This document shows, one piece after another, positions 3,833-58,851 of a stretch of 64,000 nucleotides of DNA. The stretch lies in the NCBI GenBank assembly GCA_964577315.1, contig CAZNYT010000004.1, forward strand, positions 2,482-66,481, in the 5' to 3' direction. Position numbers and translations under genes: made by a program. Below the pieces are notes generated by a model, which was given only the letters and a program-made list of their open reading frames with translations, was not told the origin of the DNA and searched no databases. Every line of letters begins with the position of its first letter. Positions within the stretch are counted from its first letter, which is position 1. This stretch comes from an uncultured Desulfovibrionales bacterium (GTDB lineage Bacteria; Desulfobacterota; Desulfovibrionia; Desulfovibrionales; Desulfonatronovibrionaceae).

Positions 3833-4445
3833 ACCAGTGTCCTGCAGCGATTTTTTGAGCCAGTCCAGGGTTGTGGGCAGGTCTTAACATTTCTGTCTTT
3901 ACCAGGGCCTTGAAACGAGCATAAGCGGTTTGTATTTCGTTATTCACAAGCCAGTAATCGAAGAATTCGCTTTGCAGCATTTCATGGGCTGCGTTTCGGA
4001 TGCGTTTTTCGATTGTTTCCTGGCTGTCGCTGCCCCTTTGGACTAACCTGGATCTTAAAACCTCTAGGGAGGGCGGAAAAATGAAGAGATAAACCCCTTG
4101 ATTTAAATTGTCCTTTATTTGCCTAGCTCCTTGGACATCTATATCCATTATCAGATTGCCTCCTTTTTGGAGGGTGCTTAGTATCTGCTCCTTGGGAGTG
4201 CCGTAAAAATTGTCATGTACCTGGGCCCATTCCGCAAAGAAGCCCTGGTCTTTTAGTTCCATGAACTCTGACTGGGCGAGGAAAAAATAGTCTTTGCCAT
4301 GCACTTCCCCGGGGCGGGGTGTCCTAGTGGTGTAGGAAACCGAAAAACCGAACTCCGGAAAATCCCTGCACAGCATATTGATCAAGGTGCTCTTGCCTGT
4401 CCCGGAAGGAGCGCTCAGCACCAGCAAAATCCCCTTAGGTTTCAT
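3825..4445 (-). CDS. gmk: Guanylate kinase
   Basis: 206 aa with P-loop [11 protein letters not shown] and [18 protein letters not shown]. It sits in the conserved yicC-remA-gmk order. Confidence 0.92.
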
Positions 4446-4716
4446 CCTTTTTCTCCAGGTGTTTTAGCCTCTGGGCCACGGTTTCAGTTTGGATGGCGGA
4501 TAGGATCACGTGCCTGGAGTCCATGATCAGGATGGAGCGGGTTTTTCTGCCCTGAGTGGCGTCGATGAGCATGTTCTGTTCCTTGGCTTCCTCTCGGAGA
4601 CGGCGCATGGGAGAGGACCCGGGATTGACAATGGCTACCACCCTGGAGCTGATCACGGAATTACCAAATCCGATATTGAGCAGCTTGAGTTTTTGTCCGG
4701 GGGAATCCTTTACCAT
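4435..4716 (-). CDS. remA: DUF370 / RemA-family small DNA-binding protein
   Basis: Sequence [34 protein letters not shown]...[11 protein letters not shown] is typical RemA/YlzA. The start is trimmed from the track ORF (4806) to the internal ATG at 4716, which sits directly after the yicC stop at 4719. Confidence 0.85.
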
Positions 4717-4718
4717 TG

Positions 4719-5606
4719 TTATTCCAGGTTTTGGGCCTGCTCTCGGCATTTCTCCAGTTGGGCCTTGAACTCCACGGCGAATCTGCTCATATCCGTGTTT
4801 TGGCACTTATTGGCGCAAGTATTTATTTCCCTGAAGGCCTCCTGGAGCAAGAAGTCCAATTTGCGCCCCACTTCCCGGGATTCCTTCAGGAGATTGCGCA
4901 TGGCCTCCAGGTGGCTCCCCATCCTGGTAAGCTCCTCGGTTACATCCAGTTTTTCGGACAAGAGCCCCAGTTCCTGCAAGAGCCTGTTTTCATCCGGTTC
5001 CCAGTCCATTTCAGACAGGATCTTGTCCACTCTTTGCTTGAGTTCCTGAAAGCGTTGCCCGGCGTTGTCCTTTGCTAGGCCCTTGAGTTCCGTGAGCAGG
5101 TTCTCCATTTCCCCCAAGCGATTCTGCAAATCCTGTACAAGCACATCTCCTTCGGCTTCTCTGGATCTGTTCCAGTTCCTAAGCGCTTCGTTCAGGGTTC
5201 CCTCCAGGTCATCCAAGAATTCCTGCCTGGGCCTGGTATTTTGTTCTTTCCATAGACTTGGGATTTTCAGGAATATGTTTAGATCCGGGGTAAAATCCGC
5301 CCCTATCTCCCGGGAAAATCCCCTTATGTCTTCCAGCATGGCCTGGGCCATGGTTCGGTCCAGTTCCATGTTAAGTATGCCCGGATCCAAGATGCGCATG
5401 TCCAAGTAAATCTCCACTCGACCCCGGGAGGCATAGTGACGGACCAACTTTTCCCACTCGCCTTGAATAAAGTTGAGGGAAGGGGGTGTTTTCCATTTCA
5501 GGTCCAGGTGGCGGCTGTTGACGCTTTTTATCTCCCAGGTAAGGCTCCAGCTGTCCTTGTTCAGCGCGGCTGAGCCGTAACCGGTCATGCTAAAGGCCAT
5601 TTGCAC
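4719..5606 (-). CDS. yicC: YicC/YloC-family protein
   Basis: 295 aa with N-terminal MTGYG and a coiled-coil C-terminal half. It lies in the conserved yicC-remA-gmk neighbourhood. Confidence 0.85.
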
Positions 5607-6260: not shown

Positions 6261-7546
6261 CCTGACCCGATTACTTCAACCCAAAGCTTGGAGCCTTCAA
6301 GCTTTAACGGCCTGGACTTGACCATTGAAGCGGGTAAAGATTCCTGAATACCTTCCTGGATGTGGCATTCAAAAAAGTATTCGCTCATTCCGCGGCCTGG
6401 TTTCTCCATGACCAGGTCAAGTTCCTTTTGTTGCTGCAGCCGCGAGGCAAAAGCTCTTGTTTTGGCCTGTACTAGTTCCTTGATTTCAGCGGAGCGCCTT
6501 TTTTTCTCTTTTTCCGGGACCTTTTGCGGGTACTTGGCTGCCGGGGTGCCGGGACGAGGGGAGTAAGTAAATACATGGGCGTAGCTGAGAGGTAGGGCCT
6601 GCACTAGTTCCCGGGTTGCCAAGAACTCCTCCGGGCCTTCCCCGGGAAAGCCCACCAGAAAGTCCGCGCCCAGGGCGAAAAGGGAATAAATTTTTTGAAG
6701 TTCGTGGACGAACCAGGTTATGTCCCCGGGATGGTAGTAGCCCCGGTGCATTTGTTTCAAAATCTTGGGGCTGCCGCTTTGTACCGCTAGATGAAAATGG
6801 GGGCAAAGCATTCGGGAATCAGCAATGGTATTTAGTGCCTTGGAATCTAGTTGAGCCGGATCCAGGGAGCTCAGCCGGATCCGGGCCTTGCCTGCCCAGG
6901 CCGGGGCCAGGTTGTGTTCCAGGTACCGGATCAAATCCCAGAAATCGGGGTTTGTTTCCCATTCCCGGCCATATAAACCCAGATTGATTCCGCTAAGGAC
7001 AACCTCGGCAAATCCCTTGGCTAAAAGCCCCTGGATTTCCTCCAGGATCTCGTCAGGGGAGCGGCTTTTGGATGCGCCCCGGGTTCTGGGGACAATACAG
7101 TACGAGCATCCCCGTATGCAGCCGTCCTGGACCTTTATTACCGGTCTGGACCGGAAGTAGTCAGTTATGCGGTAATCCTGATCCCCGAAAGAGTCCTGGT
7201 CCAGGTTTCGGGGTAGTATATTAGCAAGGAGGTGTTTTTTCTGGGCTTGGGGGAGAATGAAATCCACTTCTTTCGGACGGTCAAGTTCTCGGCCCAGGAA
7301 CTGGGCAGCGCACCCGGTGACAATAATCCAGGCGCGAGGGGATTTAGCCCGTACGGACCGGATAAGCCTGTTTAGATCCCGGATAGCCCTGGCTGTAACC
7401 GCACAGCTGTTGATGTATATGTAATTGGCTTGGCCGGGGTCCTGGACCGGGAGTAGCCCCTGTTTTTGCAGAGATTCAGTCAAGGCCTGGGATTCGTACT
7501 GGTTAACCCGGCATCCCAGCGTGTTCAGATAAAAGGTTTCTTGCAT
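6254..7546 (-). CDS. mtaB: Radical SAM methylthiotransferase, MiaB/MtaB family
   Basis: 430 aa. The N-terminal UPF0004 part has LGCRVNQYES, the radical SAM motif is GCSYCIVP, and a TRAM-like C-terminus follows. Confidence 0.85.
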   Translation of the reverse strand: MQETFYLNTLGCRVNQYESQALTESLQKQGLLPVQDPGQANYIYINSCAVTARAIRDLNRLIRSVRAKSPRAWIIVTGCAAQFLGRELDRPKEVDFILPQAQKKHLLANILPRNLDQDSFGDQDYRITDYFRSRPVIKVQDGCIRGCSYCIVPRTRGASKSRSPDEILEEIQGLLAKGFAEVVLSGINLGLYGREWETNPDFWDLIRYLEHNLAPAWAGKARIRLSSLDPAQLDSKALNTIADSRMLCPHFHLAVQSGSPKILKQMHRGYYHPGDITWFVHELQKIYSLFALGADFLVGFPGEGPEEFLATRELVQALPLSYAHVFTYSPRPGTPAAKYPQKVPEKEKKRRSAEIKELVQAKTRAFASRLQQQKELDLVMEKPGRGMSEYFFECHIQEGIQESLPASMVKSRPLKLEGSKLWVEVIGSGC

Positions 7547-7552
7547 GGGAAT

Positions 7553-8599
7553 TCAACTTGGTTTCTGTTCGATGATACCTCCGGCCAAAACCCGTCCCTG
7601 GGAGGAATAGATCGCGGCAACCTGACCCGGCGCTGGGATCTGGGGATGATCTCGGAAATGGATCCGCATGCGGGTGCCTTGTATTTCCACATTTGCGGGC
7701 TGAGGATTTTGACGGTATCTGGTTTGCACCCACAGTTCCGGGGGCCAGTACTTAAACGGAACCAGGAAGTTGACTTCCCGGGCAGAGCACTCCCAGGAAC
7801 CCAGTTCATCCTTGGAGCCCACGATCAGGGTGTTGGCGGAATGGTCCTTGCCCAGGACATATAAGGGGTGGTTGTGGGCAATTCCCAGGCCGCGCCTTTG
7901 TCCCGGAGTGTAGCGCCATAGCCCCAAGTGATACCCCAGAATCTGGCCCCGGGTATCCTTTATGGGGCCGGAACCAGGCAGATTTTTGTCCCCCACCTGC
8001 TGGGCAATAAAATCCCGGTAGTCTCCCGGAATGAAACATATCTCATTGCTTTCCTCCCGGGCTGGGGTAGGGATGTTTTTTTGACTCAAAAAGTCCGCGG
8101 TCCAAGATTTGTGCTTGTCCTGCAGGGGGAAGACCGCGCGGCGCAGACTGGTTTCAGGCACCAGGGACAAGAAGTAGCTTTGTTCCTTGTGGGGATCTTT
8201 GCCCCGCCATAACCCTGTGCCGGATGAGTCGGGCTTCACTGCAGCATAATGCCCGGTGGCCAGGTAGTCGGCACCCCATTCCCTGGCCTTTTCCAAAAGC
8301 GCTCCGAATTTGATGTTTTTATTGCACCCGGCGCATGGGTTGGGGGTTAGTCCCTGCAAATAATCCCGGATAAATGGATGAATTACGTAACTGCCAAAGG
8401 TTTGGCCCAGATCCAGCAGCAAAAGTTTCAGGCCAAGCTGGTTGCAGATCCTTTCCAGGTCATTGGAGAGTTCCCGGCTCGATTCCCTTTTCGGGAAAAA
8501 ACGGGCGTGTATGGGCAATATTTCATGTCCGGCCTCTCGGAGCAGGATCATGCTGGCGAGGCTGTCCATGCCTCCGCTTACGGCTACAGCGATTTTCAT
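7553..8599 (-). CDS. mnmA: tRNA 2-thiouridine(34) synthase
   Basis: 348 aa with PP-loop VAVSGGMDS and a conserved CAGCN segment. Confidence 0.9.
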   Translation of the reverse strand: MKIAVAVSGGMDSLASMILLREAGHEILPIHARFFPKRESSRELSNDLERICNQLGLKLLLLDLGQTFGSYVIHPFIRDYLQGLTPNPCAGCNKNIKFGALLEKAREWGADYLATGHYAAVKPDSSGTGLWRGKDPHKEQSYFLSLVPETSLRRAVFPLQDKHKSWTADFLSQKNIPTPAREESNEICFIPGDYRDFIAQQVGDKNLPGSGPIKDTRGQILGYHLGLWRYTPGQRRGLGIAHNHPLYVLGKDHSANTLIVGSKDELGSWECSAREVNFLVPFKYWPPELWVQTRYRQNPQPANVEIQGTRMRIHFRDHPQIPAPGQVAAIYSSQGRVLAGGIIEQKPS

Positions 8600-10446: not shown

Positions 10447-12408
10447 TTATTGCTCCTGCTTTTCTTCTTCTTGTTCCTGAAGCTTTTTTATCCACATATC
10501 CCTTTGATGTTTCCTGAATTCCATAGCCCACTTTACACGATCGCTGTCCGCGGGTCGAAGTTGGTCCCGGTCCATATGAAAGACGTAAAGATCCTGAAAT
10601 GCCCGGCCGCTTTCGTCCCAACGTATAGGAGCCATACTCCAGGCATCAAAATTGTTTTCTGCCAAGATTTGATTGATTTCTTCATGCTCCTGTGGAGCAG
10701 GCATGTCTCCCAGCCGTGCAGAAAAGCGGACAAAATCGTACCCTAAAGCCGTCCAGAAATTTGCCTCGCCTTGGGCGGTTTCCTCCAGTTTTTGGGCTAG
10801 TTGCCTGGACCGGGGATCCGGGTTGTAATTATTCCATCCCCCACTACTGAGTGCCAGGGAAAAGAATTGCTGTTCCAGGTTGTTCGGGGAGTGTGCCTGA
10901 TACCAGAGCATGGGGCCCAAAAATACCAGGTGATCATGGTTGAAGTAGAAAAACTCCGGGATCAGGCCTTGGGCTCTAGACAAGGAGTCTGGAATAAAAA
11001 CCGCCTGAAATTCCGAATCCACATTGAGCCAAGGATCCTGCAAATCAGAGGTTCCCAGGAATGAAGATACTATGTGATTCCATTGGGAGGGTTGATCCGG
11101 GGGGTAGTTTTGTACCCCCTTGATATCAACTTCCCGGTCCTGGGCTTTGTTCCAGAAGATTTCGGCATAAGTCCTTCCGAAATCCTCTTCCGGATACATT
11201 ATGGCGAAATTGGTGATTTCCAGCTCCTGAATGGTTAGATCCAGCAAGGCACGGATCTGGTCCTGGGGGCTGGAAAAAAAGCGCCATCCCTCTTTGCCTT
11301 CCTCTTCCAAGGAGGGCATAAAGGTCAAAAAGGGGACTTCTTTATGCAAGCCGTGTTCGCGAATCTCTCCCCATTTGTGTAGGGAAAGCGGGCCACCCAC
11401 AAAAGAAAGGTTTTCCATTTGGCTCAACTTGTCCAGCCATCCCGGTTGATTTGTATTGATGGTTTTGACCTGGATCCGGGTATCTTGTTTTAACATTTCC
11501 CAATGGGCTTGGCCGGCACCGCGCAGCACATCCCAGCCCACCGAGGAATGGTGGCCGCTTAGAGGCAGGGCAAGGGCTATCTTGGGAACGGGTTTTCCAA
11601 GATCGGACTCCCACTTCTCGAGCTGGGAAAGCATGGGCTCGCGATGCACCAATTCGCTTTGCCCTGCGATTTCGCGAAGTTGGGGGTGAAGGGATGTCCA
11701 CAAAGAATCATCCTCTTCCAGACGTGCCTGGTAATAAGCCCACCAAAAGATATTGTGAGGGAAAACAAGCTTTTTTTCCTCCTCCATAAAGGGAACGGCT
11801 TTTTCCAATTCCTTTAGGTCCAGTTCTAAGAAACGGTTAAGGACAAATTCTTCCAGTTCCCTTTTTTGGGACTCTGTCCTGGCCTGACCATAGATTTCTT
11901 GTAGTACGGACGTGGCTTCCGGATATCTGTTGTGTTTCAGGTGGATCTCTGCCAGTTCCCGGGCTGCTGGATGGGTTAAAGCAAAGGGCTTGTCCGGGTC
12001 TGAGTACAATTCCTCCAAGTAACGGATGTAAGTGTGTTCAGGCTGGGTTTCCTTGAGGGCCCAGGAATAAACTTCATGCCATTTTTGTTTCTCCTGGATC
12101 TTAGGGTCTGCTTTTGCCCATCTTTCCGAGGCCTGTAAGGCCATTTCAGGATCACGGTTCTCGTAGGCGCTAACTGCCAGTCTCCGTAGGGCTAGCTTTT
12201 TCTTGTCCGGCTCGAGCTCATAATCTTCTAAAATCTGGGAATAAAGCTCCTGGCTGCGCTGGAAATCCTGGCTTTCCCAGGCGTGGGCAGCTTCTTGTTC
12301 CAATGCAGGTCTGGGTGGGTCTTCCGGGACCACTTTTTTTTCAGCGCAGGCTGAAAGAAAAACCAGGAAAAGGGCCAAAAGCAGTATGATAGGAGTATAG
12401 CGCATCAT
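10447..12408 (-). CDS. Lipoprotein with N-terminal TPR-like helices and a type-1 periplasmic-binding-protein-like C-terminal domain (LpoA-like)
   Basis: Signal peptide with a lipobox (MMRYTPIILLLALFLVFLSAC). The track ORF start at 12462 is discarded because codons 1-18 (VNSYIPFN...) are the reverse complement of repeat family 1. The functional call is by architecture only. Confidence 0.6.
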   Translation of the reverse strand: MMRYTPIILLLALFLVFLSACAEKKVVPEDPPRPALEQEAAHAWESQDFQRSQELYSQILEDYELEPDKKKLALRRLAVSAYENRDPEMALQASERWAKADPKIQEKQKWHEVYSWALKETQPEHTYIRYLEELYSDPDKPFALTHPAARELAEIHLKHNRYPEATSVLQEIYGQARTESQKRELEEFVLNRFLELDLKELEKAVPFMEEEKKLVFPHNIFWWAYYQARLEEDDSLWTSLHPQLREIAGQSELVHREPMLSQLEKWESDLGKPVPKIALALPLSGHHSSVGWDVLRGAGQAHWEMLKQDTRIQVKTINTNQPGWLDKLSQMENLSFVGGPLSLHKWGEIREHGLHKEVPFLTFMPSLEEEGKEGWRFFSSPQDQIRALLDLTIQELEITNFAIMYPEEDFGRTYAEIFWNKAQDREVDIKGVQNYPPDQPSQWNHIVSSFLGTSDLQDPWLNVDSEFQAVFIPDSLSRAQGLIPEFFYFNHDHLVFLGPMLWYQAHSPNNLEQQFFSLALSSGGWNNYNPDPRSRQLAQKLEETAQGEANFWTALGYDFVRFSARLGDMPAPQEHEEINQILAENNFDAWSMAPIRWDESGRAFQDLYVFHMDRDQLRPADSDRVKWAMEFRKHQRDMWIKKLQEQEEEKQEQ

Positions 12409-12852: not shown

Positions 12853-14775
12853 TTATTTCTTGTCGTTTACCTCGGTGTAGTCTGCATCCACTACCTCTTC
12901 ATCCGCACTCTGACCGGTTTGCTGCCCGGCATCTCCCTGCGGCTGCTCTTGCCCAGCGGCCTGGCCGCTTTCGCTCTTCTGGGCGTACAGCTTTTCAGCC
13001 AGCTGGTGAGAGGCCTGGGACAGCTCATCCGTTGCCTTGCGAATAGCTTCTTCGTCTTCGCCTTCCATGACGTCTTTGAGGGCTTGGATCTTGTTCTCTA
13101 TATCCGCCTTGAGCTCCGCATCCAGGCTGTCTCCCAGGTCCCGGATGGATTTTTCCGTGGTATAGATCAGGCTGTCCGCGTTGTTGCGGGCCTCGATAAG
13201 CCTTTGTTTCTTCTTGTCCTCTTCCGCATGGGATTCGGCTTCCTTGATGAGCCTGTTAATCTCTTCCTCGGACAAGCCGCTGGAGGAAGTGATCTGTATG
13301 GATTGCTCCTTGCCGGTGCCCAGATCCTTGGCTGATACGTTCACAAGGCCGTTGGCGTCTATATCGAAAGTGACTTCGATCTGGGGCACGCCTCTAGGCG
13401 CCGCAGGAATCCCGGTCAGCTCGAAGCGCCCCAGGGTCATGTTGTCCTGAGCCATGGGCCGTTCGCCCTGCAAGACATGGATGGACACCGAGGGCTGATT
13501 GTCCGCGGCAGTGGTAAAGATCTGGCTCTTGCGGGTAGGTATGGTGGTGTTACGTTCGATGAGCTTGGTGAATACCCCGCCCATAGTCTCTATTCCCAGG
13601 GACAAGGGAGTTACGTCCAGAAGCAGAACGTCCTTGACATCCCCGGCAAAAATACCGCCTTGGATTGCGGCTCCCATGGCAACCACTTCGTCCGGGTTGA
13701 CGCTCTTGTTGGGTTCCTTGCCGAAGAAGTCCGTGACCTTCTTCTGGACCAGGGGCATCCTGGTCATGCCGCCTACCAGAAGAACCTGATTAATATCGGA
13801 TGCCTTAAGCTCAGCATCAGCCAAAGCGTCCTCGCAAGGCTTCATGGTTCTTTGTACCAGATCTTCCACCAGGCTTTCCAGCTTGCTCCTGGTGAGCTTC
13901 ATCAGCATGTGTTTGGGACCGTTTTGGTCAGCAGTGATAAAGGGGAGGTTGATCTCAGTCTCCATGGTTGTGGAGAGTTCCTTTTTGGCTTTTTCAGCTG
14001 CCTCACGCAGTCTTTGCAGAGCCATGCGGTCCGCTGAAAGGTCGATGCCGTTTTCCTTTTTGAATTCATCCACTAGGTGATTAACTATTCTCTGGTCAAA
14101 GTCCTCTCCGCCCAAAAAGGTATCTCCGTGAGTGGAGCGGACTTCCACTAGATTGTCCCCCACTTCCAGGATGGAGATGTCAAAGGTGCCTCCGCCCAGG
14201 TCGAATACAGCAATCTTTTCGTTTACATTCTTGTCCGCGCCGTAAGCCAAGGATGCGGCAGTGGGTTCGTTGATGATCCTCTTGACTTCCAGCCCGGCTA
14301 TCCGGCCGGCGTCCTTGGTGGCCTGCCTCTGGCTGTCGTTAAAGTAGGCCGGAACCGTTATTACGGCTTCCTCTACTGTTTCCCCCAAGTAGGATTCAGC
14401 GTCGCTCTTTAGCTTTTGCAGGATCATGGCTGAAATTTCCGGGGGACTGTAGCTTCTGTCCCCTACCTTGACAAACGCGTCATTGTTCTTTCCGGGGACG
14501 ATGTGGTAGGAGCATCGCTCCAGCCAGTTCTTGATTTCGGGATCATCGTACTGACGCCCCATGAGACGCTTTACGGAATAAACGGTGTTCTCGGGATTTG
14601 TTACCGCCTGTCTCTTGGCGATCTCACCCACCAACCGTTCCTTATCGGTAAAAGCAACAATGGACGGGGTGGTTCTGCCCCCTTCCGGGTTGCTTATACA
14701 TTGGGGATCCTTCCCTTCCATGACATAAACGCAGCAGTTAGTAGTTCCCAGGTCGATACCTATTATCTTACCCAT
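12853..14775 (-). CDS. dnaK: Molecular chaperone DnaK (Hsp70)
   Basis: 640 aa with GIDLGTTNC and DLGGGTFD. Confidence 0.97.
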
Positions 14776-38549: not shown

Positions 38550-39899
38550 TCAGAATCTCTTGAGCTCGAAGAGTTTCTTGGATTGGGTGGATACGATATG
38601 GAAATATCTGTCCTGGGGAGTGTAGATGTACGGTACGTCTTCCTTGCGCCGGTATAAGAAGTGGGCTAGAATCATACGATTTACAGCTTGATGTCCAATA
38701 ATCATGATATATGTGGGATTGCCGCTTAAGTAGATAGCCTTTTTTAAACCCCGGTCTACTCGTTCCTTCAAGGTGACGTAACCTTCCCCCTGAGGATAGA
38801 TATAGTTGTACTTGTCCTGGATCCTGGCATAAAAAACTTCAGGTTTTTCCCGGCGAATCTCTTCATAGCTCATCCCTTCACATATCCCGGAATCGATTTC
38901 GTTGAATTCCTGCAAGTGGATCACGCGGCTATTTTTCTGCTGCTGTCTTATGGGCTCAGAGGTTTCTATGGTGCGTTTTTTGGCGCTGGTGTAGATATAG
39001 GGTATATTGGTGTTCTGGAAATGCTTGGCCAGTGCTTCGGCCTGTTTCCAACCATTGGGAGTGAGTTTGGAGTCGCCGCCGATCCTGTTCTCCAGGTTAA
39101 AGTAGCTTTCACCGTGCCGAACCAGGAACAGGTTCTTGACCCAGTCCGATACCAATAGATCCCGGATCTGGACGTTACAAAAAATATTGTCCGTGATTTT
39201 TTGGGCCAGGATCTGATTGTTTAGGGAATCCAGAATGTAGTAGTTAGGCTCTTGATCCAGGGGGTCAGCAATATGCTCATAATAGGAGATCCTTTTTTGA
39301 AAGCCATCAAAGGCCTCTTGAAAGCTGTAATTGGCAAACTCGTTTTGCTGGGTTTTCTTGGTAATGCTGGCCTTTAAGATTTCCTCGTCCGTGTTTATGC
39401 ATTCCACAAAAAGAATAGGGTGATCTCCGAGCATTTCCTGGATGGTTCTGCGCCTTTTATGGCTAACATTAGTAGCGTCCAGGATGGCCACCTGCCCATT
39501 TCCAGCCAAGTATTTCCTGGCATTGTTTATGTTGGTCAGGGCTATCTGTTCCCTGAGTTCAACGTTTGTCTTGTTGTCAGGGTTGTAGAAGTCTGGCTTG
39601 GTTGAGCTCTCGCTGAGAAGTTTGCGGCGCAGATCGCCGTTGTTGAATATGCGGACCTTGATATTTTCCTTTTGGAGGCCTTCCTTGAGCTTGGCAGCCA
39701 CAGTGGACTTTCCTCTTGCCGGCAAACCCACCATGACGATATATAGTTTGTTCAAATAATCTTGCATTTTTTCAATCTTACTTCTCAGGTTATTGCTGTC
39801 AAGTGAATCTCGGGGATTCAAAAGAGATATATCCTTAGGGATAGCTTCAGAATGGAATTGTCCTTGATTCCGTGATCTCTTCTGCATATAACCTTGCAC
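38550..39899 (-). CDS. Bifunctional 6-phosphofructo-2-kinase / fructose-2,6-bisphosphatase-like protein (PFKFB type)
   Basis: The kinase half has IVMVGLPARGKST (animal PFKFB has VMVGLPARGKTY). The phosphatase half has LVRHGESYFNLENRIGGDSKLTPNG (PFKFB has CRHGESE.N..GRIGGDS.L...G). The start is uncertain: GTG at 39899, or ATG at 39887 or 39767. Confidence 0.8.
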   Translation of the reverse strand: MQGYMQKRSRNQGQFHSEAIPKDISLLNPRDSLDSNNLRSKIEKMQDYLNKLYIVMVGLPARGKSTVAAKLKEGLQKENIKVRIFNNGDLRRKLLSESSTKPDFYNPDNKTNVELREQIALTNINNARKYLAGNGQVAILDATNVSHKRRRTIQEMLGDHPILFVECINTDEEILKASITKKTQQNEFANYSFQEAFDGFQKRISYYEHIADPLDQEPNYYILDSLNNQILAQKITDNIFCNVQIRDLLVSDWVKNLFLVRHGESYFNLENRIGGDSKLTPNGWKQAEALAKHFQNTNIPYIYTSAKKRTIETSEPIRQQQKNSRVIHLQEFNEIDSGICEGMSYEEIRREKPEVFYARIQDKYNYIYPQGEGYVTLKERVDRGLKKAIYLSGNPTYIMIIGHQAVNRMILAHFLYRRKEDVPYIYTPQDRYFHIVSTQSKKLFELKRF

Positions 39900-42033: not shown

Positions 42034-43638
42034 TTAGGCGGTTTCATGTTCTGAAGTTTTTTGTTTGATCTTGGAGTTGGAGTACATTTCCTCTACGTTG
42101 AAGCGGTGGCAGGGGCCACTGTTCCAGGTGCAGAATGGATAGAGGTTGCCCTGGGGGTCAGCGTAATGTACTATGCAATGGCGCACTCGATCTATTTCAT
42201 AATTGTAGTGGTCCTGAAAGTGCATGGCAGCCGAGAGAATGATTCCATAACGGCTCTTTTGAATTTTTTCTTTCAGGGCTTTCTTGTCCATTTCGTGCCC
42301 TTCCCGCAAATGTATAAGATCGTCTATGAATTCCTGCATCTTTTCAAAGTCCCAGCCTTCGGGGGCTTTGTCCTCGTGAAAGTGCTTTCTTAGTTCTCTC
42401 TTTAGCTGCAAGGCCAAAGCCTTTTTCAGCCAGGGATAGTTTTCTATGCGCTTGGCTTTCTTGTTCAGGCTTTCAGCTGCGGATTCAACATCCCAAAAGG
42501 CAGGGAAAGGAACAGCTTTGCCGGTTTCCTTGTCCACGAGTATGTAAGTCACGCATCCGCAATGGGGATGGCAGTTGGTATGTGCCATCTTCTCCCCGCC
42601 GGTAGCAGCCTCCAAAAACCTGGATACCGGGGAGACAATGGAGAAGGGATACCAATCCCGGTGCATATCCATGAAATCGGTTTGTTCCTGGAGCTCCCTG
42701 GCTAGGTCTGCAGTGGTAAAACGCATTTCCCTGCGCTGGGATTCATCGATTCTGCCGGTAAAGGACACTGGCTGCCAGCTTATGGCGGTGATCACGTCCA
42801 CGTTCTCCACGGCAAAGCGCAGGATGTCTCCTACCTGATGGTCATTGAATCCTTTGACAATAGTAGGAACCAGGGCCACTCGAACCCCGGCCTGGCGCAG
42901 ATTCTCAATTGCCTTCATCTTGGTGTCGTACAAGGGTCGGCCGCGAGTTTGACGGTAAATGTCATCACTTACACCGTCGAATTGCAAATATACCACGTCC
43001 AGGCCGGCTTCAGCTACTTGTTCTGCAAACTCCGGTTTTTGGGCGAAACGAACCCCGTTGCTCGCCACCTGAATTTGGGCAAATCCCTTGGATTTGGCTT
43101 TGCGCACAGCATCCAGAAAATGGGGGTGAATGGTGGGTTCACCTCCGGCAAACTGTACGCAAATAACCGGATGCGGCCCCAATGAGGCGATGGATTCGAT
43201 TACGTGGTCAATCTGCTCCCAGGTTAGTTCGTATACCCGGCCCACGGCATTGGAATTGGCAAAGCAGATAGGACAGTTCAGGTTGCATCGATTAGTCAAG
43301 TCAATATTGATCATGGAAGGAAAGGATTTATGATTGCTGCATACCCCGCAATCATATGGACAACCTTGCTCCGGCTTTTTGTGAGGTTTGTCCACTTTGG
43401 CCGGCTTATCGTAATGGGTATGCCGCATCTTGAGGAAAAAATCCTTGTCCGCACTAATGAGTTCCTTGAATTCGCCGTGCTCCTGACAGGATTTATTCAT
43501 AAAAACCTGGTTGTCTTCCTCTACCAGGTCGGCCTCGATTATTTTGTTACACTCGGGACAAAGGCTGCGAGTGGAAATAGGCAGGTCGTAGGTAGTGGTT
43601 TGTTCTTTGGATTTGCTCCACCAATTGTGTAAGAACAT
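42034..43638 (-). CDS. Radical SAM enzyme with N-terminal zinc-ribbon, MJ0619 / tetraether-lipid-synthase (Tes)-like architecture
   Basis: 534 aa. Zinc-ribbon CPECNK...CQEHG, auxiliary cluster motif GCPYDCGVCSNH, radical SAM motif NRCNLNCPICF, and C-terminal Cys/His clusters (NCHPHCGC, HCIVHY...FCTW). The family assignment is by recalled architecture, not by search. Confidence 0.65.
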   Translation of the reverse strand: MFLHNWWSKSKEQTTTYDLPISTRSLCPECNKIIEADLVEEDNQVFMNKSCQEHGEFKELISADKDFFLKMRHTHYDKPAKVDKPHKKPEQGCPYDCGVCSNHKSFPSMINIDLTNRCNLNCPICFANSNAVGRVYELTWEQIDHVIESIASLGPHPVICVQFAGGEPTIHPHFLDAVRKAKSKGFAQIQVASNGVRFAQKPEFAEQVAEAGLDVVYLQFDGVSDDIYRQTRGRPLYDTKMKAIENLRQAGVRVALVPTIVKGFNDHQVGDILRFAVENVDVITAISWQPVSFTGRIDESQRREMRFTTADLARELQEQTDFMDMHRDWYPFSIVSPVSRFLEAATGGEKMAHTNCHPHCGCVTYILVDKETGKAVPFPAFWDVESAAESLNKKAKRIENYPWLKKALALQLKRELRKHFHEDKAPEGWDFEKMQEFIDDLIHLREGHEMDKKALKEKIQKSRYGIILSAAMHFQDHYNYEIDRVRHCIVHYADPQGNLYPFCTWNSGPCHRFNVEEMYSNSKIKQKTSEHETA

Positions 43639-53922: not shown

Positions 53923-54591
53923 TCAGTAACTGGTTTCTATGGTTAAACCAGCTGCCTGCCACTCATGCACTCCCTCCGGAATGCGCACGGCATCAAATCC
54001 CTGGGAGCGCAAAACCTCCACTGCTTCACTGGCCAGAAGACAGTACGGTCCACGGCAGTAGGCCACAATCTTGCGCTCCTTGGGTAGCTCGGACAAGCGC
54101 GTATCCAACTCCTGCAGGGGGACGGATATTGCGCCAGGAATGTGCCCAGCCCGGTATTCTTCAGCAGGGCGGACATCCAGCACAGTGATCTCGTCCTCCT
54201 GCACCCGCTGCTTAAGACCTTGACGGTCCAGCCTTTCCAAATACGGGTCGTTGTTGATGACTTCCCGGACTATGTTTTGAAATTCGGCCAAGCGTTTTTC
54301 AGCCAGGGTGCACAAGGAGCGGAAAAATTCACATACTGACTGGTCTGCGATATGGTAAGTCACGTGCTGGGCCTGCTTATTTGCATCTATGAGTCTGGAT
54401 TCGCGCAATATCTGCAGGTGCCTGGAGGTATTGGCCAAGCTCAGTCCGGCTTCCCGGGCTAGGTTGTCCACGGTGCGCGGTCCGTGGCGCAAAAGATCCA
54501 CGAGCTCCAGTCTCTTGGGGCTGGACAGGGCTTTTCCCACCCGGGCTAATTGTTCGTATATGCTGTTCTTGATTTCGGTTCGGTGTTTCAT
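53923..54591 (-). CDS. ArsR/SmtB-family regulator fused to a rhodanese domain
   Basis: 222 aa. The N-terminal wHTH has LSSPKRLELVDLL...ANTSRHLQIL. The C-terminal rhodanese has the active-site loop AYCRGPYC. Confidence 0.85.
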   Translation of the reverse strand: MKHRTEIKNSIYEQLARVGKALSSPKRLELVDLLRHGPRTVDNLAREAGLSLANTSRHLQILRESRLIDANKQAQHVTYHIADQSVCEFFRSLCTLAEKRLAEFQNIVREVINNDPYLERLDRQGLKQRVQEDEITVLDVRPAEEYRAGHIPGAISVPLQELDTRLSELPKERKIVAYCRGPYCLLASEAVEVLRSQGFDAVRIPEGVHEWQAAGLTIETSY

Positions 54592-54713: not shown

Positions 54714-54750
54714 CCGCCCCTGGCTTTGTCCTGAATCAGGGCAGGGGCGG
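54714..54750 (-). terminator. Intrinsic terminator after the radical SAM/SPASM gene
   Basis: Minus strand: CCGCCCCTG-ccctgattcaggacaaagc-CAGGGGCGG followed by TTTCTCTT, 34 nt after the stop at 54784. Confidence 0.7.
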
Positions 54751-54783
54751 TGTGCTGTAGGAAGGTGCCTGACGAATTTGTGG

Positions 54784-56175
54784 CTATTTCCAGGAGTGAA
54801 ACACCTCGGTCTCATCCTCCCAAGTGTCCCATAGAAAAGCCTCTTCTCTACCTTCGGATATCAGGCGGAAGGCATAGCGCACCTGTTCCTCGAAAAAGGA
54901 ACAGTAAGGGCTGGGGGTATTCAGTCCCCCGCAGGACATGTAGGTTTCAGCTGGACAGGGAGAGCCACAGAAGTGGCGGATGGCGCATGTATAGCAGGGT
55001 GTGATATTCTCCACTTTCCTCTCGGTTACCGCAGTGAAGGGTTCTGAGGCCAGTATGGTTTCCGGGTCCCGCTCAAATATGTTGCCCCCAAAGAATCGAT
55101 CCAAGCCGATGAATTCGCTGCACGGAACCGCTTGTCCGTCCGAGGCCACTGCAAAAAAGCAGCGTCCTCCCCCGCAGGGAGAGATGTCACACATGAGCCT
55201 GCGCCCGGTGGGGCCGATGATTCCGGCCAGGGCATTTGCGAAGTTGGCTATCACGAGCTTGCGCCCGGTCTTTTGATAAAGCTGGTAGCTGCGCTCCAGG
55301 GCACGAATGAATTCTCGGGCCAAAACCTGATTGTCCGGCTTGAGATCCGTGCCTCCCTGGCGGGTGCAGCGCACTGGATTCATCATGACCACGCCCACTC
55401 CAAGCTCATGGTAGAAATCCACCATGTCCTCAAGGTCGTACACGTTCTCCCTGGTCACAGTGGTGATCACGTTCAGGGCCGGGTAATCCTTGAGCTTGTA
55501 AAGAACCTCGTGAACCCGGTCAAATACACCCTGGTTGCCCCAATTTTTTCGGATTCTGTCCGATACCAGGGCCCTGGGACCGTCCAGGGATAGCCCCACC
55601 CCAACTTCATGGCGTTTCAAGAACGCAATGGACTCATCGTCCAGCAAAGTCCCGTTGGTCTGGATTCCGAAGTGAAAGTCCCCGGAATAACGCTCTATGG
55701 CGTCGAACACGGCCTCCTTGGCCAGCAAGGGCTCACTGCCGTGAAAGATGAGTTGGGGGGTAGCTTCCGGGGGCAATGATCGGTTGAAGTAGGCCTTGAG
55801 TTTTTCCAGGGCACGCAAGAGATCCCGGGATTGCATATCGCGGCCGTTTCGGCGCATCTCCTCCGGGAGGTAGCAGTAGCTGCAATTCAGGTTACATCGC
55901 TCGGTGGGATTCAAATAAACTGCCGAGGGTTTAAGCCCGCTGCGCAAGTGCTCCATGTCCTGGGCGAAATCCCGGGATTTGGCTTCAAATTGCCTGATTA
56001 TATCCCCGCTCAGGGCCTGATCCAGGCTGCTGCGCTCCACTAGGGCCCAAAAAGCGGTCTCTGGTTCCACCACTGCCACTCGATCCGGGCTGCCGAACTC
56101 CAGAACAGCAAAACCGGGGCCGTACCCGGTGTTGGCGTAAAGGCCCCGGTTGGGTGATGTGTCTCCCTGGTACAT
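54784..56175 (-). CDS. Radical SAM enzyme with C-terminal SPASM-type auxiliary cluster domain (peptide-maturase type)
   Basis: 463 aa. Radical SAM motif ERCNLNCSYCY at about residue 95. The C-terminal Cys-rich region has CDISPCGGGRC, VPCSEF, PCYTCAIRHFCGSPCPAE and CGG...SPYC. Its ATG overlaps the stop of a 42-codon ORF. Confidence 0.88.
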   Translation of the reverse strand: MYQGDTSPNRGLYANTGYGPGFAVLEFGSPDRVAVVEPETAFWALVERSSLDQALSGDIIRQFEAKSRDFAQDMEHLRSGLKPSAVYLNPTERCNLNCSYCYLPEEMRRNGRDMQSRDLLRALEKLKAYFNRSLPPEATPQLIFHGSEPLLAKEAVFDAIERYSGDFHFGIQTNGTLLDDESIAFLKRHEVGVGLSLDGPRALVSDRIRKNWGNQGVFDRVHEVLYKLKDYPALNVITTVTRENVYDLEDMVDFYHELGVGVVMMNPVRCTRQGGTDLKPDNQVLAREFIRALERSYQLYQKTGRKLVIANFANALAGIIGPTGRRLMCDISPCGGGRCFFAVASDGQAVPCSEFIGLDRFFGGNIFERDPETILASEPFTAVTERKVENITPCYTCAIRHFCGSPCPAETYMSCGGLNTPSPYCSFFEEQVRYAFRLISEGREEAFLWDTWEDETEVFHSWK

Positions 56176-56303
56176 TATTGCTTCCCGGCCTCTTTTTTAG
56201 CGGTTTTTTTCTTAGGGGTAAGCATGATGTAATGAGAGAGACCGGTTCCCTGACCATTGGAGCTGCACCTGCGCCGGTAGGAAATAACGTTTTCCTGTTT
56301 CAT
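56175..56303 (-). CDS. 42-aa peptide, candidate precursor or substrate of the adjacent radical SAM/SPASM enzyme
   Basis: Hand translation: MKQENVISYRRRCSSNGQGTGLSHYIMLTPKKKTAKKEAGKQ. AGGAGG lies 7 nt upstream of the ATG at 56303, and the stop/start overlap with the rSAM gene is TAATG. The 70-codon version in the track would begin inside the riboswitch terminator and is rejected. Confidence 0.65.
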   Translation of the reverse strand: MKQENVISYRRRCSSNGQGTGLSHYIMLTPKKKTAKKEAGKQ

Positions 56304-56336
56304 GTTGTTCCTCCTTTCAGGTTTTTTGGTGTGCAC

Positions 56337-56374
56337 AAAAAAACCCGGAGCAACCCACGAAAGGCTACTCCGGG
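56337..56374 (-). terminator. Riboswitch expression platform: intrinsic terminator
   Basis: Minus strand: CCCGGAG-tagcctttcgtgggttg-CTCCGGG followed by TTTTTTT. It sits between the aptamer and the peptide RBS. Confidence 0.8.
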
Positions 56375-56409
56375 TTCCCGTTGCCATAAGAAATCCCGGC
56401 AGGCATTTT

Positions 56410-56564
56410 TCATTAGGTCTTCTGGCTCTCGGATCCTCTGTCTACCTGCGGCCTTCCCTCCAGGGTAGGCCCTGAAAGTGGCCCGGCTTGAACCGATGCA
56501 GGCAGGCATCCCCGATCACAGCGGCGGGACCGCCACGGATTTGCACCGTGTTCCGGGTTAATGA
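56410..56564 (-). promoter_or_regulatory. Cobalamin (B12) riboswitch aptamer
   Basis: The minus strand reads UCAUUAACCCGGAACACGGUGCAAAUCCGUGGCGGUCCCGCCGCUGUGA ... GGGCCACUUUCAGGGCCUACCCUGGAGGGAAGGCCGC ... GAGCCAGAAGACCUAAUGA. It contains the conserved GGUG.AAAUCC...CCCGCC.CUGU core, the GCCACU/GGGAAGGC elements, a B12 box (AGCCAGAAGACCU) and a closing helix UCAUUA/UAAUGA. Confidence 0.85.
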
Positions 56565-56838: not shown

Positions 56839-57327
56839 TCAGCCAGTTTGGCTGGAAAACAGTTTTTCTGCTTTACTTAGAACCTTTTCCCGGATGTTCT
56901 CATCCAGGGAGTGCTTGAGGATGAGTAGGGTGATTGCCTCTCTCAAAAGCTCGGCTTCATCCTTGTTCTCGTTTTCCGGAACCTGGGTGAGTGTGCTGAA
57001 TATCTCGTATACATCCGGGGTGAGCGTGGTGCAAACCTCCTGGGAGGGCTGCTCCTTGGCTTCGGTTTTTTCATCAATGGTTTTTTGGTCCTCGCCCTCT
57101 TCAACCTCTGGAAGCCGCTGCAAAAGATTGTAGCACTCCATGATTTTGTCCATGCACTGCTGGCGGAAATACCATGCCCCCAAGGTCCTGATTACATTCC
57201 TGGTTGCCTGTATTTGGTCCGGGGGCAGATCCTTGCCCATCACCTTTTTGGCGGACTCCAGAGCGCTGTCGTAGCAATCACAGCGGGTTGAAACTATGGC
57301 TGAGGCCAAGTCCTTATCCATGCCCAT
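56839..57327 (-). CDS. Hypothetical acidic protein (162 aa) co-oriented with tusA and yeeE
   Basis: ORF with Cys pairs (TRCDCYDS, QQCMDKIMEC) and an acidic low-complexity centre. No family recognised. Confidence 0.55.
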   Translation of the reverse strand: MGMDKDLASAIVSTRCDCYDSALESAKKVMGKDLPPDQIQATRNVIRTLGAWYFRQQCMDKIMECYNLLQRLPEVEEGEDQKTIDEKTEAKEQPSQEVCTTLTPDVYEIFSTLTQVPENENKDEAELLREAITLLILKHSLDENIREKVLSKAEKLFSSQTG

Positions 57328-57374: not shown

Positions 57375-57620
57375 CTATCCCTTTTTGATGAAGTACACGG
57401 TTTTGCCGTCTTCAGTATCGTACATGCCCAAGAATTCGTTCCCGTCCTTGTTCCCGTAGTCCGGGAGATCGTTCTTGGAGCCGGGATCAGTGCCGATGAT
57501 CTGCAGGACCTGCCCGCTCTCCAATTCCTTCATGGCTTTCTTGGTTCTTAGCAGGGGCATGGGGCAGCTCAGCCCGCTGGCATCCAAAACCTGATCCGGG
57601 TTGATGGTGGAAACGTCCAT
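57375..57620 (-). CDS. tusA: TusA/SirA-like sulfurtransferase
   Basis: 81 aa with the conserved DASGLSCPMPLL (CPxP) motif. Confidence 0.88.
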   Translation of the reverse strand: MDVSTINPDQVLDASGLSCPMPLLRTKKAMKELESGQVLQIIGTDPGSKNDLPDYGNKDGNEFLGMYDTEDGKTVYFIKKG

Positions 57621-57648
57621 AATGAACCTCCTTTATTGTTTTTAATGG

Positions 57649-58851
57649 TTAGAAAGCTACAAATTTTTCGGTTTTCTCGTTCCAGATGGCCCAGAGAGCC
57701 CAGAGCAAGGGAATGAGAATAAAGATCACCATGGAAAGGGGCCAGCCAAAGACATCAGGCATGAAAGTGCCCGAGCCCAGCCTGTCCGCTATTTCAAAAT
57801 GGTGCAGGGCAGTGTAGGTAAGGGAATTGGACAGGGCCATGAAGATCACTGCGATGATGATCTTGATGTGGCCCTCGCCTAGTCTCCACAAAGTACCCGA
57901 GCCGCATCCACCAGCAAGCAGCATTCCCACACCGAAGATAATACCTCCTATGAGGCTGCCCAGCCAGAAGGGATGAAATACCCCCACCTCGGGCGGCACA
58001 AGCCAGTTGTATTTGATAATCGCTGAAGCCATGCCGTAGACAATCAGGCTGAGTGCCACCGCTCGAACCATGGTGGCGTCCCCGGTCATGAAGGGCTCCC
58101 GGAAGGCTCGGGCCATACAGAAACGGGAGCGGTGCATGGTTAATCCGATTAGAGCGCCCAGGAACAAAAGCCCACCTTCAGTAGTTTGTCCCTGCACTGC
58201 ATACAAGTAAAATGCCAACACCAAGAGCACAGCCAGAATGCCTCCGGCATAAGGAGAAACCTTGGACCAGTTGATCAGCGGCTCTCGGGGCATTTCCCGG
58301 GAAGAAGGCGGGGCAGAGGCCTGTTGGGGAATGTTCATCATCTCCCATATCAAATAGCGCAGTCCCAGGTAAGCCCCGATACCCAGACCGATCATCATGG
58401 CGTAGCCTCCCATGGAGAACATGCCCACAGGGCTGTAGAATCCGCCTATGTTGCATCCAAAGGCAAATCCGGCGCCTATGCCCATTAATGCACCGCCTAC
58501 TGCGCCTTTGGCGTATTCGTACCAGGACGAGGATCTTATCTTGAATTGACCAGCCAAGAGGGCAGAGCTCAAGGCTCCCAAAACCAGCCCGATATTGGTC
58601 AGGGAAAGGTGGCTCATCCAAGGGGAGAGTTCCGGGGATTGGTTATAGATGCCCACGGAGTACAAGATCCAGTCACCCCAGTTGCGCATGCCTCCGATGA
58701 TTCCCCACATGGCTTCACCCCATAGCAAGATCATCACGGCCAGGAAGGCCAGAAAAATGCCTGCCAGCCACATGGGCCAGTTTTGCTGGAATACCAGAAT
58801 GAAATTTTTTCGGGCTTCCTCGCGGATGTTGCTCCAAAAAGTAGTTGCCAC
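57649..58851 (-). CDS. yeeE: YeeE/YedE-family sulfur-compound (thiosulfate) transporter
   Basis: 400-aa polytopic protein with duplicated sulphur-transport repeats containing conserved Cys (FGCNIGG, GGCGSG). GTG start after AGGAG. It is paired with tusA as in the known YeeE-YeeD/TsuA-TsuB systems. Confidence 0.85.
   Translation of the reverse strand: MATTFWSNIREEARKNFILVFQQNWPMWLAGIFLAFLAVMILLWGEAMWGIIGGMRNWGDWILYSVGIYNQSPELSPWMSHLSLTNIGLVLGALSSALLAGQFKIRSSSWYEYAKGAVGGALMGIGAGFAFGCNIGGFYSPVGMFSMGGYAMMIGLGIGAYLGLRYLIWEMMNIPQQASAPPSSREMPREPLINWSKVSPYAGGILAVLLVLAFYLYAVQGQTTEGGLLFLGALIGLTMHRSRFCMARAFREPFMTGDATMVRAVALSLIVYGMASAIIKYNWLVPPEVGVFHPFWLGSLIGGIIFGVGMLLAGGCGSGTLWRLGEGHIKIIIAVIFMALSNSLTYTALHHFEIADRLGSGTFMPDVFGWPLSMVIFILIPLLWALWAIWNEKTEKFVAF

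Follow-up and report, generated by a model that had tools for sequence, protein, structure and literature searches.

A riboswitch-preceded cbpA-cbpB precursor and maturase pair in a Desulfovibrionales genome and its possible tie to cobamide supply

We analyzed a 64-kb stretch of DNA (64,000 nucleotides of contig CAZNYT010000004.1 from an uncultured Desulfovibrionales bacterium, hereafter the window) that carries, on its minus strand, a cobalamin riboswitch followed by a two-gene unit. The first gene, cbpA, codes for a 42-residue precursor peptide, and the second, cbpB, for a 463-residue radical S-adenosylmethionine (SAM) enzyme with a SPASM domain. We hold it to be fairly probable that this is a genuine cbpA-cbpB unit controlled by an OFF-type cobalamin riboswitch, and that the CbpB-modified CbpA product serves the cell's own cobamide supply. 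In the family as a whole, cbpAB is almost always under predicted B12 repression, and in a quarter of the lineages it is also physically part of cobamide synthesis or uptake operons. In the window, the link to cobamides is the riboswitch only, i.e., it is regulatory.

The CbpA/CbpB family and its gene names were defined computationally years ago, and so, to judge from the model names 'cobopep' and 'cobo_pep', was its association with cobalamin. Annotation pipelines assign the names automatically, and orthologues already carry them at NCBI and JGI. New in our analysis are the quantified linkage to the riboswitch, a refined core motif of the peptide, a terminator/antiterminator model for the leader, and the recurrence, measured against controls, of the pair in operons for late cobamide assembly and uptake.

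Results

Gene order and cobalamin riboswitch

Read along the minus strand, the riboswitch is followed by an intrinsic terminator, by AGGAGG and a 42-codon open reading frame (ORF), by a TAATG overlap of stop and start codons that leads into the 463-codon radical SAM/SPASM ORF, and finally by a 3′ hairpin (Table 1). The original prediction, made from the DNA letters, had placed five such elements here, and all of them were present almost to the base.

Table 1. Features of the cbpAB unit in the window.
Feature	Position	Strand	Basis or description
Cobalamin riboswitch aptamer including extended P1	56405..56569	minus	RF00174 match and minimum free energy fold
Switching segment CCGGGAUUUC (L13-type)	56390..56399	minus	Fold of the nascent transcript
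Intrinsic terminator	56337..56374	minus	Stem 56374-56362/56356-56344, loop 56361-56357, U7 56343-56337
Shine-Dalgarno motif AGGAGG	56310..56315	minus	Read directly; 6 nt 5′ of the cbpA ATG at 56303
cbpA, 42-residue precursor MKQENVISYRRRCSSNGQGTGLSHYIMLTPKKKTAKKEAGKQ	56175..56303 (stop included)	minus	TIGR04164 match
cbpB, 463-residue radical SAM/SPASM peptide maturase	54784..56175	minus	TIGR04163; start overlaps the cbpA stop (TAATG)
3′ hairpin after cbpB	54714..54750	minus	Stem ACCGCCCCUG.../...CAGGGGCGGU, tail UUUCUCUU

The Rfam model RF00174 matched positions 56554-56417 of the minus strand with 72 bits (E 8.4e-16; gathering score 31.5 bits), and this was the only riboswitch found in the 64-kb window. 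The match covered model positions 47-167, with the B12 box AGCCAGAAGACC aligned; the box itself, AGCCAGAAGACCU, lies at 56427-56415. The GCCACU...GGGAAGGC segment and the aptamer core could both be read directly in the sequence. The closing helix P1 had been described as UCAUUA/UAAUGA and is indeed present, but it is longer, as in the minimum free energy (MFE) fold of the leader AUUUUUCAUUA (56569-56559) pairs with UAAUGAAAAAU (56415-56405). The L5 loop of the aptamer, UCCCG, sits inside GGCGGUCCCGCCGC and is nearly invariant among related platforms.

We compared the unit with 40 orthologous genome loci, four further loci found via specific proteins, and 25 orthologous metagenome loci. Cultured strains are among the carriers of the pair, e.g., Desulfacinum infernum DSM 9756, Hydrosulfovibrio ferrireducens CB1MN, Desulfosoma caldarium, and Thiovibrio frasassiensis. 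In 57 of the 63 evaluable loci, cbpA has a cobalamin riboswitch upstream in the same orientation, and the element is thus mostly retained with the orthologues. In five of the six loci without a riboswitch (L030 and L053, L059, L069, and L070), cobamide genes adjoin cbpAB on the same strand, and the remaining one, L060, lies on a short contig.

A predicted OFF-type expression platform

The leader terminator, listed in the original prediction with its U7 tract, has a 13-bp G+C-rich stem and a 5-nt loop; if the A/U tracts on both sides are included, the stem can reach 17 bp. Its folding energy was -32.5 kcal/mol (z = -5.3), and none of 200 shuffled sequences was as stable; a simple consensus terminator scan did not pick it up. 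Of 36 related leaders, 34 have a hairpin followed by a U-run in the interval from aptamer to cbpA. Moreover, in an alignment of 21 leaders, half of the 18 pairs in the terminator stem (9/18) were maintained despite changes on both sides.

When the 3′ arm of the terminator was omitted from the fold, the switching segment CCGGGAUUUC (56399-56390) paired with GGGAACCCGG (56379-56370). The latter is the start of the terminator 5′ arm, and the pairing hence represents an antiterminator alternative. The switching segment also contains CGGGA, which is complementary to the L5 loop. Cobalamin riboswitches are established to work through a kissing loop between L5 and L13 that the ligand stabilizes, and by analogy we infer such a role for the L13-type segment in this leader. 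With a covarying terminator and a competing antiterminator, the window riboswitch appears to have an expression platform able to transmit ligand binding. The architecture of an OFF-type switch is present, and ligand-dependent switching is predicted from it.

In the mechanism that we propose, abundant corrinoid would cause the L5 loop of the ligand-bound aptamer to capture the GGG-containing L13-type segment; the 13-17-bp terminator would form, and transcription would end at U7, ahead of cbpA. With scarce corrinoid, the L13-type segment would pair with the terminator 5′ arm and RNA polymerase would read through. CbpA and the translationally coupled CbpB would then be made, and CbpB would modify the CbpA core R-x-x-C...G-x-G-L-S-H-Y.

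The precursor peptide CbpA

Among the NCBIfam models, the window peptide had a sole match, TIGR04164 (modified peptide precursor CbpA), a 25-column model with a cutoff of 35 bits (E 1.4e-7, 30.8 bits). Residues R10, C13, G21, L22, S23, and H24 are invariant in an alignment of 20 CbpA sequences, and all six are present in the window peptide. The core can be described as R-x-x-C, a short spacer, and G-x-G-L-S-H-Y-[IV]-[LM], contained in a peptide of 30-50 residues; the window peptide fits this motif, which holds in more divergent loci as well. In the wider set of loci, the first Tyr is replaceable (Y/F/S/C/I/V/R). The C-terminal tail is variable, i.e., Lys-rich in the window peptide and acidic in Desulfurivibrionaceae. 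A short ORF ahead of orthologous enzymes, with a conserved Cys and a coding signature, was therefore found as predicted, whereas the Lys-rich tail that had been expected with it is not conserved. The window peptide has a single Cys and is a short, strongly basic precursor; a sulfatase-type C/S-x-P-x-R motif was not found in its sequence.

In all 39 evaluable genome loci, cbpA lies directly upstream of cbpB, and a GGAG or GGAGG motif precedes it in each of the 39 genome loci in which it was located. The divergent metagenome loci had it as well wherever upstream DNA was present, and conservation of the peptide extends over Thermodesulfobacteriota, Actinomycetes, and Gammaproteobacteria. Within the two blocks of cbpA that are conserved, pairwise nucleotide differences amounted to 1870 and 3031 at codon position 3, compared with 312-903 at positions 1 and 2, and over the roughly 18 codons of these blocks synonymous exceeded nonsynonymous codon differences by about 3:1. 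We therefore conclude that cbpA is translated and that purifying selection acts on it.

A profile search returned about 1,700 clusters of related peptides, many of them already named CbpA; those listed were all short. Longer database entries named CbpA (61-77 residues) were considered as multi-core precursors and rejected, as they are over-extended ORF calls through the terminator. The only multi-core precursor seen was that of Sedimenticola (L043, 5001-5231), which has two cores in tandem, VIAYRKRCDADGVGLSHYILMDK and VIARRKRCSADGVGLSHYILMDK. From this duplication, we conclude that the core of about 22 residues is the functional module.

The maturase CbpB and its relatives

CbpB matched the NCBIfam equivalog TIGR04163 (peptide-modifying radical SAM enzyme CbpB) with 649.5 bits, compared with an equivalog cutoff of 375 bits, and residues 23-448 covered positions 2-428 of the 428 positions in the model. 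With TIGR04164 as the sole match of the peptide, this bears out the family assignment that the original prediction had offered as a possibility. The next-best families, i.e., PapB, DynA, QhpD, anSME, YhhB, and SCIFF, reached only 100-140 bits against cutoffs of 340-450, and the enzyme thus stands outside anSME and the other named families, as had also been expected. In Pfam, both Radical_SAM (69.9 bits) and SPASM (25.3 bits) were over their cutoffs. The nearest CbpB in a collection of 5.8 billion proteins, with its own contig excluded, was 68% identical. Like other members of the family, the window pair combines an enzyme over the cutoff, the peptide core, overlapping genes, and a riboswitch ahead. 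It differs in nothing essential: identity to the nearest CbpB is at most 68%, the tail is Lys-rich, and the CbpA score is 4 bits short.

The enzyme has the radical SAM motif C94-x3-C98-x2-C101 (CNLNCSYC), and its C-terminus is rich in Cys. Across 37 CbpB orthologues, twelve Cys do not vary, i.e., C94, C98, and C101 together with C329, C334, C339, C352, C394, C397, C403, C407, and C425. The nine additional Cys, which include a CX2CX5CX3C motif, would be enough for two fully ligated auxiliary clusters. An AlphaFold (AF2) model of CbpB (pLDDT 85.6, pTM 0.87) had its best fold match in CteB (5WHY/5WGG, E 2.5e-20) over essentially the whole chain, followed by anSME, TigE, ChlB, SkfB, and SuiB. A sequence search of the PDB agreed with these fold matches (CteB, anSME, TigE, ChlB, and SuiB). 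In the model, the N-terminal 80 residues or so form three strands and then helices, and they are aligned within the full-length CteB match. No Pfam match to a PqqD-like domain or RiPP recognition element (RRE; RiPP, a peptide made on the ribosome and modified after its translation) was obtained for CbpB; the predicted N-terminal domain is compatible with peptide recognition. From motif and model, we propose that CbpB is a peptide maturase with a CteB-like fold and two auxiliary Fe-S clusters.

Both in structure and in sequence, CbpB is matched best by CteB, over the full length including the N-terminal β-strand/helix domain, and the systems of the thioether-forming maturases CteB/SCIFF, PapB, and QhpD share with cbpAB the two-gene layout of peptide and maturase, with no exporter or protease. 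These enzymes form Cys-dependent cross-links, and by analogy the chemistry of CbpB is most likely an intramolecular cross-link through the single invariant Cys of CbpA. However, the CteB-type maturases are only about 20% identical to CbpB (PapB model, 139 bits versus a cutoff of 340; SCIFF model, 107 versus 425), and their precursors have many Cys, in contrast to the single Cys of CbpA; riboswitch and cobamide context are absent there. CbpB is hence not a member of the sactipeptide/ranthipeptide maturases, since it is below the family cutoffs and its precursor has a single Cys, and the resemblance is one of fold only. With anSME, it shares the radical SAM/SPASM fold (TM-score about 0.8 on the target), and C329, C339, and C352 align with Cys of the first auxiliary-cluster segment of anSME. 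In contrast to anSME, CbpB carries about 80 additional residues as an N-terminal domain and has a dedicated small-peptide substrate, and it scored 120 bits against the anSME cutoff of 349. PqqA/PqqE and MftA/MftC also consist of a short precursor and a radical SAM/SPASM enzyme, and their products, of the pyrroloquinoline quinone (PQQ) or mycofactocin type, serve metabolism and not warfare. Those systems have several further processing genes and conserved partners, whereas CbpAB is a bare pair, and the CbpB scores for the PqqE and MftC models were well under cutoff.

cbpAB in cobamide operons of related lineages

We collapsed the related loci at a CbpB identity of at least 80% to 37 lineages, 32 of which had at least 2.5 kb of flanking DNA. 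As controls, we used 51 loci of other SPASM maturases from the same metagenome scan, with 595 kb of flanking sequence. Core cobamide genes were found near cbpAB in 8 of the 32 lineages and at none of the 51 control loci (Fisher's exact test, p = 2.7e-4). In all eight lineages these genes are on the cbpB strand; mostly they are the nucleotide-loop genes cobT, cobS, cobU, and cbiB, often accompanied by btu/TonB uptake genes (Table 2). The arrangement is like that of bza/cobT and cobUST operons, i.e., in these relatives a riboswitch and then cbpAB stand directly upstream of or among cobT, cobS, cobU, cbiB, and cobD. CbpB, however, is unrelated to the lower-ligand enzymes BzaA/B/F (ThiC-like) or BluB, and its apparent substrate is a ribosomal peptide.

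Table 2. Gene orders around cbpAB in related loci with cobamide genes (RS, cobalamin riboswitch; every layout is on one strand).
Locus	Gene order
L040	btuC-ABC ATPase-exbB-exbD-tonB-RS-cbpA-cbpB-cobT-cobS-cobD-cbiB-cobU-RS
L030/L053	TIGR04076 gene-cbpA-cbpB-cobT (then cobS-cobD-cbiB in L030; the L053 contig stops within cobT)
L058	RS-cbpAB-cobU-cobT
L063	cbpB-cobC-cobU-cobT-cobS
L070	cobT-cobS-cbiB-cobD-cbpA-cbpB
L059	btuB-cbiB-cobD-Asn-synthase-like-cbpAB-PP-loop ATPase-small rSAM-btuF-btuC-btuD-...-cobU-cobS-PP-loop ATPase-cobT
L043 (Sedimenticola)	RS-cbpA-cbpB-RS-cbiA-cobO-cbiM-precorrin methylase

According to the original prediction, a modified peptide falls obviously into none of the categories known for B12-riboswitch regulons. 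This was too strong, since the eight lineages, all of them other than that of the window, have the pair inside or beside cobamide synthesis and uptake operons, and cbpAB probably belongs to the category of corrinoid synthesis and uptake. Membership in a cobamide operon is a property of part of the CbpAB family, and the window locus is without it, as no cobamide gene is adjacent there. Most close relatives of the window pair likewise stand alone among varied neighbors, and the cobamide layouts are found in more divergent branches. In Sedimenticola, the nearby genes are corrin-ring and cobalt genes, and in L070 cbpA is kept in the middle of the operon without a riboswitch. No exporter, leader peptidase, or signal/leader-cleavage motif was conserved in about 60 loci, and no conserved partner enzyme or processing peptidase was found near cbpAB.

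Several other features were observed in these loci. The Sedimenticola locus has two cobalamin riboswitches within 2 kb (4701-4883 and 6730-6906). L030 and L053 belong to one lineage, which has cbpAB-cobT without a riboswitch, and a Cys-rich gene of the TIGR04076 family lies immediately 5′ of cbpA on the same strand (L030, 5449-5796; L053, 4381-4725). The L059 cluster contains extra genes, none of them a standard cobamide gene (4347-5282, 6889-8350, 11290-12084, and 13369-14034), which code for an Asn-synthase-like protein, two PP-loop ATPases of the Diphthami_syn_2 type, a 242-residue radical SAM protein, and a TIM barrel resembling xylose isomerase. In an Actinomycete (L034, 8197-9468), a second radical SAM/SPASM protein with a C-terminal SEC-C motif is encoded about 850 nt 3′ of cbpB on the same strand. 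A gene for an FMN-reductase/flavodoxin-like protein with CxxCxxC, a possible electron donor, lies about 165 nt 3′ of cbpB on the same strand (L001, 7557-8135; equivalents in L002-L013, L029, L032, L036, and L048). We considered the FMN reductase as a family feature and rejected it, as it occurs in 17-21 loci that, by tblastn, are essentially confined to one syntenic Desulfurivibrionaceae lineage. An 81-nt tRNA is located about 250-440 nt 5′ of the riboswitch on the opposite strand in every Desulfurivibrionaceae locus (L001-L013, L029, L032, and L036), with an identical Rfam score except in L032. Beyond this tRNA, the Desulfurivibrionaceae loci have ORFs that, assigned by eye, resemble tig-clpP-clpX-lon, a synteny with no visible functional tie.

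Genomic surroundings in the window

At the 3′ end of the unit, the hairpin that had been taken for a second terminator exists, but it is weaker than described (z = -1.8; 11 of 200 shuffles as stable) and is possibly a weak terminator. The next gene downstream (53923-54591, minus strand) codes for a fusion of an ArsR/SmtB-type regulator with a rhodanese domain. Ahead of it lie a TTGACA box (54670-54665) and a perfect palindrome of 37 nt, TTATTCATTATTCAATTGATCAATTGAATAATGAATA (54655-54619), which are probably the promoter and operator of this gene. As the downstream gene has its own box and palindrome, cbpAB looks like a self-contained, separate transcription unit. The original view of a self-contained, corrinoid-repressed unit of peptide and maturase is hence supported by architecture, family matches, and the putative promoter box of the downstream gene, with the switching itself inferred.

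Directly upstream of the riboswitch (57375-58851, minus strand) are genes for a YedE/TsuA-like membrane protein of 400 residues and then a TusA-like sulfurtransferase of 81 residues; an acidic ORF of 162 codons with no NCBIfam or Pfam match lies between the TusA-like gene and the riboswitch (56839-57327, minus strand). cbpAB thus sits in a sulfur-trafficking neighborhood, with TusA/YedE-like genes on one side and ArsR-rhodanese and NapH-like genes on the other. Within about 15 kb on either side, the neighbors include ArsR-rhodanese, a NapH-like ferredoxin, TusA/YedE-like proteins, PilB/PilC, GOGAT, a Tes-like radical SAM protein, and others; no corrinoid gene, exporter, or protease was among them, and none of them hints at a function for the pair. 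The Tes-like protein (42034-43638, minus strand, 534 residues) reached 514 bits with the model of the tetraether lipid synthase Tes (NF045702; cutoff 450), and this bacterial homologue suggests a capacity for membrane-spanning lipids. A 449-residue protein (38550-39899, minus strand), the C-terminal half of which is like α-ribazole phosphatase/histidine phosphatases (95 bits; cutoff 163), is the product of the one gene observed in the window that bears even a remote likeness to a cobamide gene.

Discussion

The placement of cbpAB inside or beside cobamide synthesis and uptake operons leads us to prefer cobamide supply, and not an antibiotic or a backup independent of B12, as the purpose of the pair. 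As judged from this context, the CbpAB product would aid late cobamide assembly (nucleotide loop or lower ligand) or the salvage of corrinoids. Cobamide operons are commonly riboswitch-repressed (PMC6461909).

Several findings weigh against this interpretation. A tblastn panel detected no cobamide genes in the 64-kb window, and NCBIfam models detected none among 15 neighboring ORFs. In 24 of the 32 evaluable lineages, no cobamide gene is near cbpAB and the functional link is by the riboswitch alone; moreover, the adjacency of riboswitch units could reflect clustering of a regulon and not a shared function. The CbpA score in the window is below the curated cutoff, and the length of the spacer between the Cys and GLSHY differs by 2-3 residues, as one would not usually expect of a fixed macrocycle. 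On the side of regulation, two Actinomycete leaders are without a terminator and presumably use some other mechanism. Of 29 distinct platforms from related loci, only 17 gave a comparable antiterminator pairing by MFE folding, so that we regard the support for the antiterminator/kissing-loop model as moderate; here each sequence was folded separately and counting from the alignment was dropped, since that segment is put out of register by MAFFT. Finally, a full-text search of the collection of papers available to us yielded no experimental work, chemistry, product, or phenotype for CbpA/CbpB; hits on the name CbpA concerned other proteins or DOI strings.

An alternative with the same regulatory logic is a B12-sparing backup, in which the modified peptide, or a small molecule derived from it, would replace or support a cobamide-dependent process, like riboswitch-repressed metE/nrdDG, PQQ, or mycofactocin. 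An OFF-riboswitch is what controls B12-independent isozymes, the unit is solitary among varied neighbors in the window and in the 24 lineages, and radical SAM/SPASM enzymes do yield peptide-derived cofactors, with PqqE and MftC among the weaker family matches of CbpB. We nevertheless consider it unlikely, as it leaves unexplained why cbpAB is placed in nucleotide-loop and uptake operons in eight lineages, and as neither a conserved partner enzyme nor a processing peptidase is nearby and the PqqE and MftC scores are far under their cutoffs. We give a similarly small chance to an exported, metallophore-like peptide that would capture cobalt or corrinoids in the periplasm or outside the cell. Its invariant Cys and His could ligate cobalt, cbpAB is flanked in L040 and L059 by genes for a BtuB-type receptor, BtuFCD, and TonB-ExbBD, and expression is predicted from the riboswitch to rise when corrinoid is scarce. 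However, CbpA is a short precursor of strongly basic character, the conserved export and leader-processing features are missing from the related loci, and the commonest cobamide neighbors are the cytoplasmic assembly enzymes CobT, CobU, CobS, and CbiB. Of the two hypotheses first put forward, a scavenging peptide and a peptide cofactor or backup, the former thus survives in its link to corrinoid or cobalt supply, which the operon context favors, whereas its secretion is without an exporter, protease, or leader-cleavage feature.

It is very improbable that the pair makes an unrelated antimicrobial or signaling RiPP that uses the corrinoid level as a mere environmental cue. The nearest characterized relatives of CbpB do make natural products of the sactipeptide or ranthipeptide type; however, bacteriocins evolve fast, whereas the CbpA core is nearly identical across phyla, immunity and export genes are absent, and a riboswitch in 57 of 63 loci together with the embedding in cob operons would be hard to account for. 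Least credible is a short ORF that acts only as a regulatory leader or upstream ORF (uORF), with a non-peptide substrate for CbpB. uORFs located 3′ of B12 riboswitches are described in other organisms (PMC11260477). Such a role is at odds with the strong amino acid conservation and synonymous drift over about 18 codons, the tandem duplication of the core in Sedimenticola, the cbpA retained in mid-operon without a riboswitch in L070, and a CbpB fold that is that of peptide-modifying enzymes.

Within the preferred reading of a role in cobamide supply, the slot next to cobT is the usual place of lower-ligand synthesis genes, e.g., of bza genes with cobT. A direct part of the modified CbpA in building the cobamide is conceivable, though we doubt it: the peptide may supply or scaffold the lower ligand or a piece of the nucleotide loop, e.g., through the His or Tyr of GLSHY, or it may hand incomplete corrinoids to CobT, CobS, or CobU in salvage. 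We considered a phenolic lower ligand derived from the conserved Tyr and judged it unlikely, as only one cobT, and no tandem arsAB pair, is present in the loci; the first Tyr is, moreover, not conserved. Phenolic lower ligands need such tandem cobT homologues (arsAB) (PMC6461909). Shelton et al. reported that 42% of predicted cobamide producers are without known lower-ligand genes (PMC6461909). If the direct role of the peptide were true, it would represent a new enzymatic input to the making of cobamides by anaerobes in which no known genes for the lower ligand are present.

The window locus is an ordinary member of a curated family, and its value lies in the lead that it gives at the level of the family. 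A minority of microbes produce B12-type cofactors, which are shared in communities, and their late assembly and the origin of their lower ligands are incompletely mapped. We propose cbpAB as a candidate for a missing accessory step in the assembly of B12-type cofactors, one that would be cheap to test.

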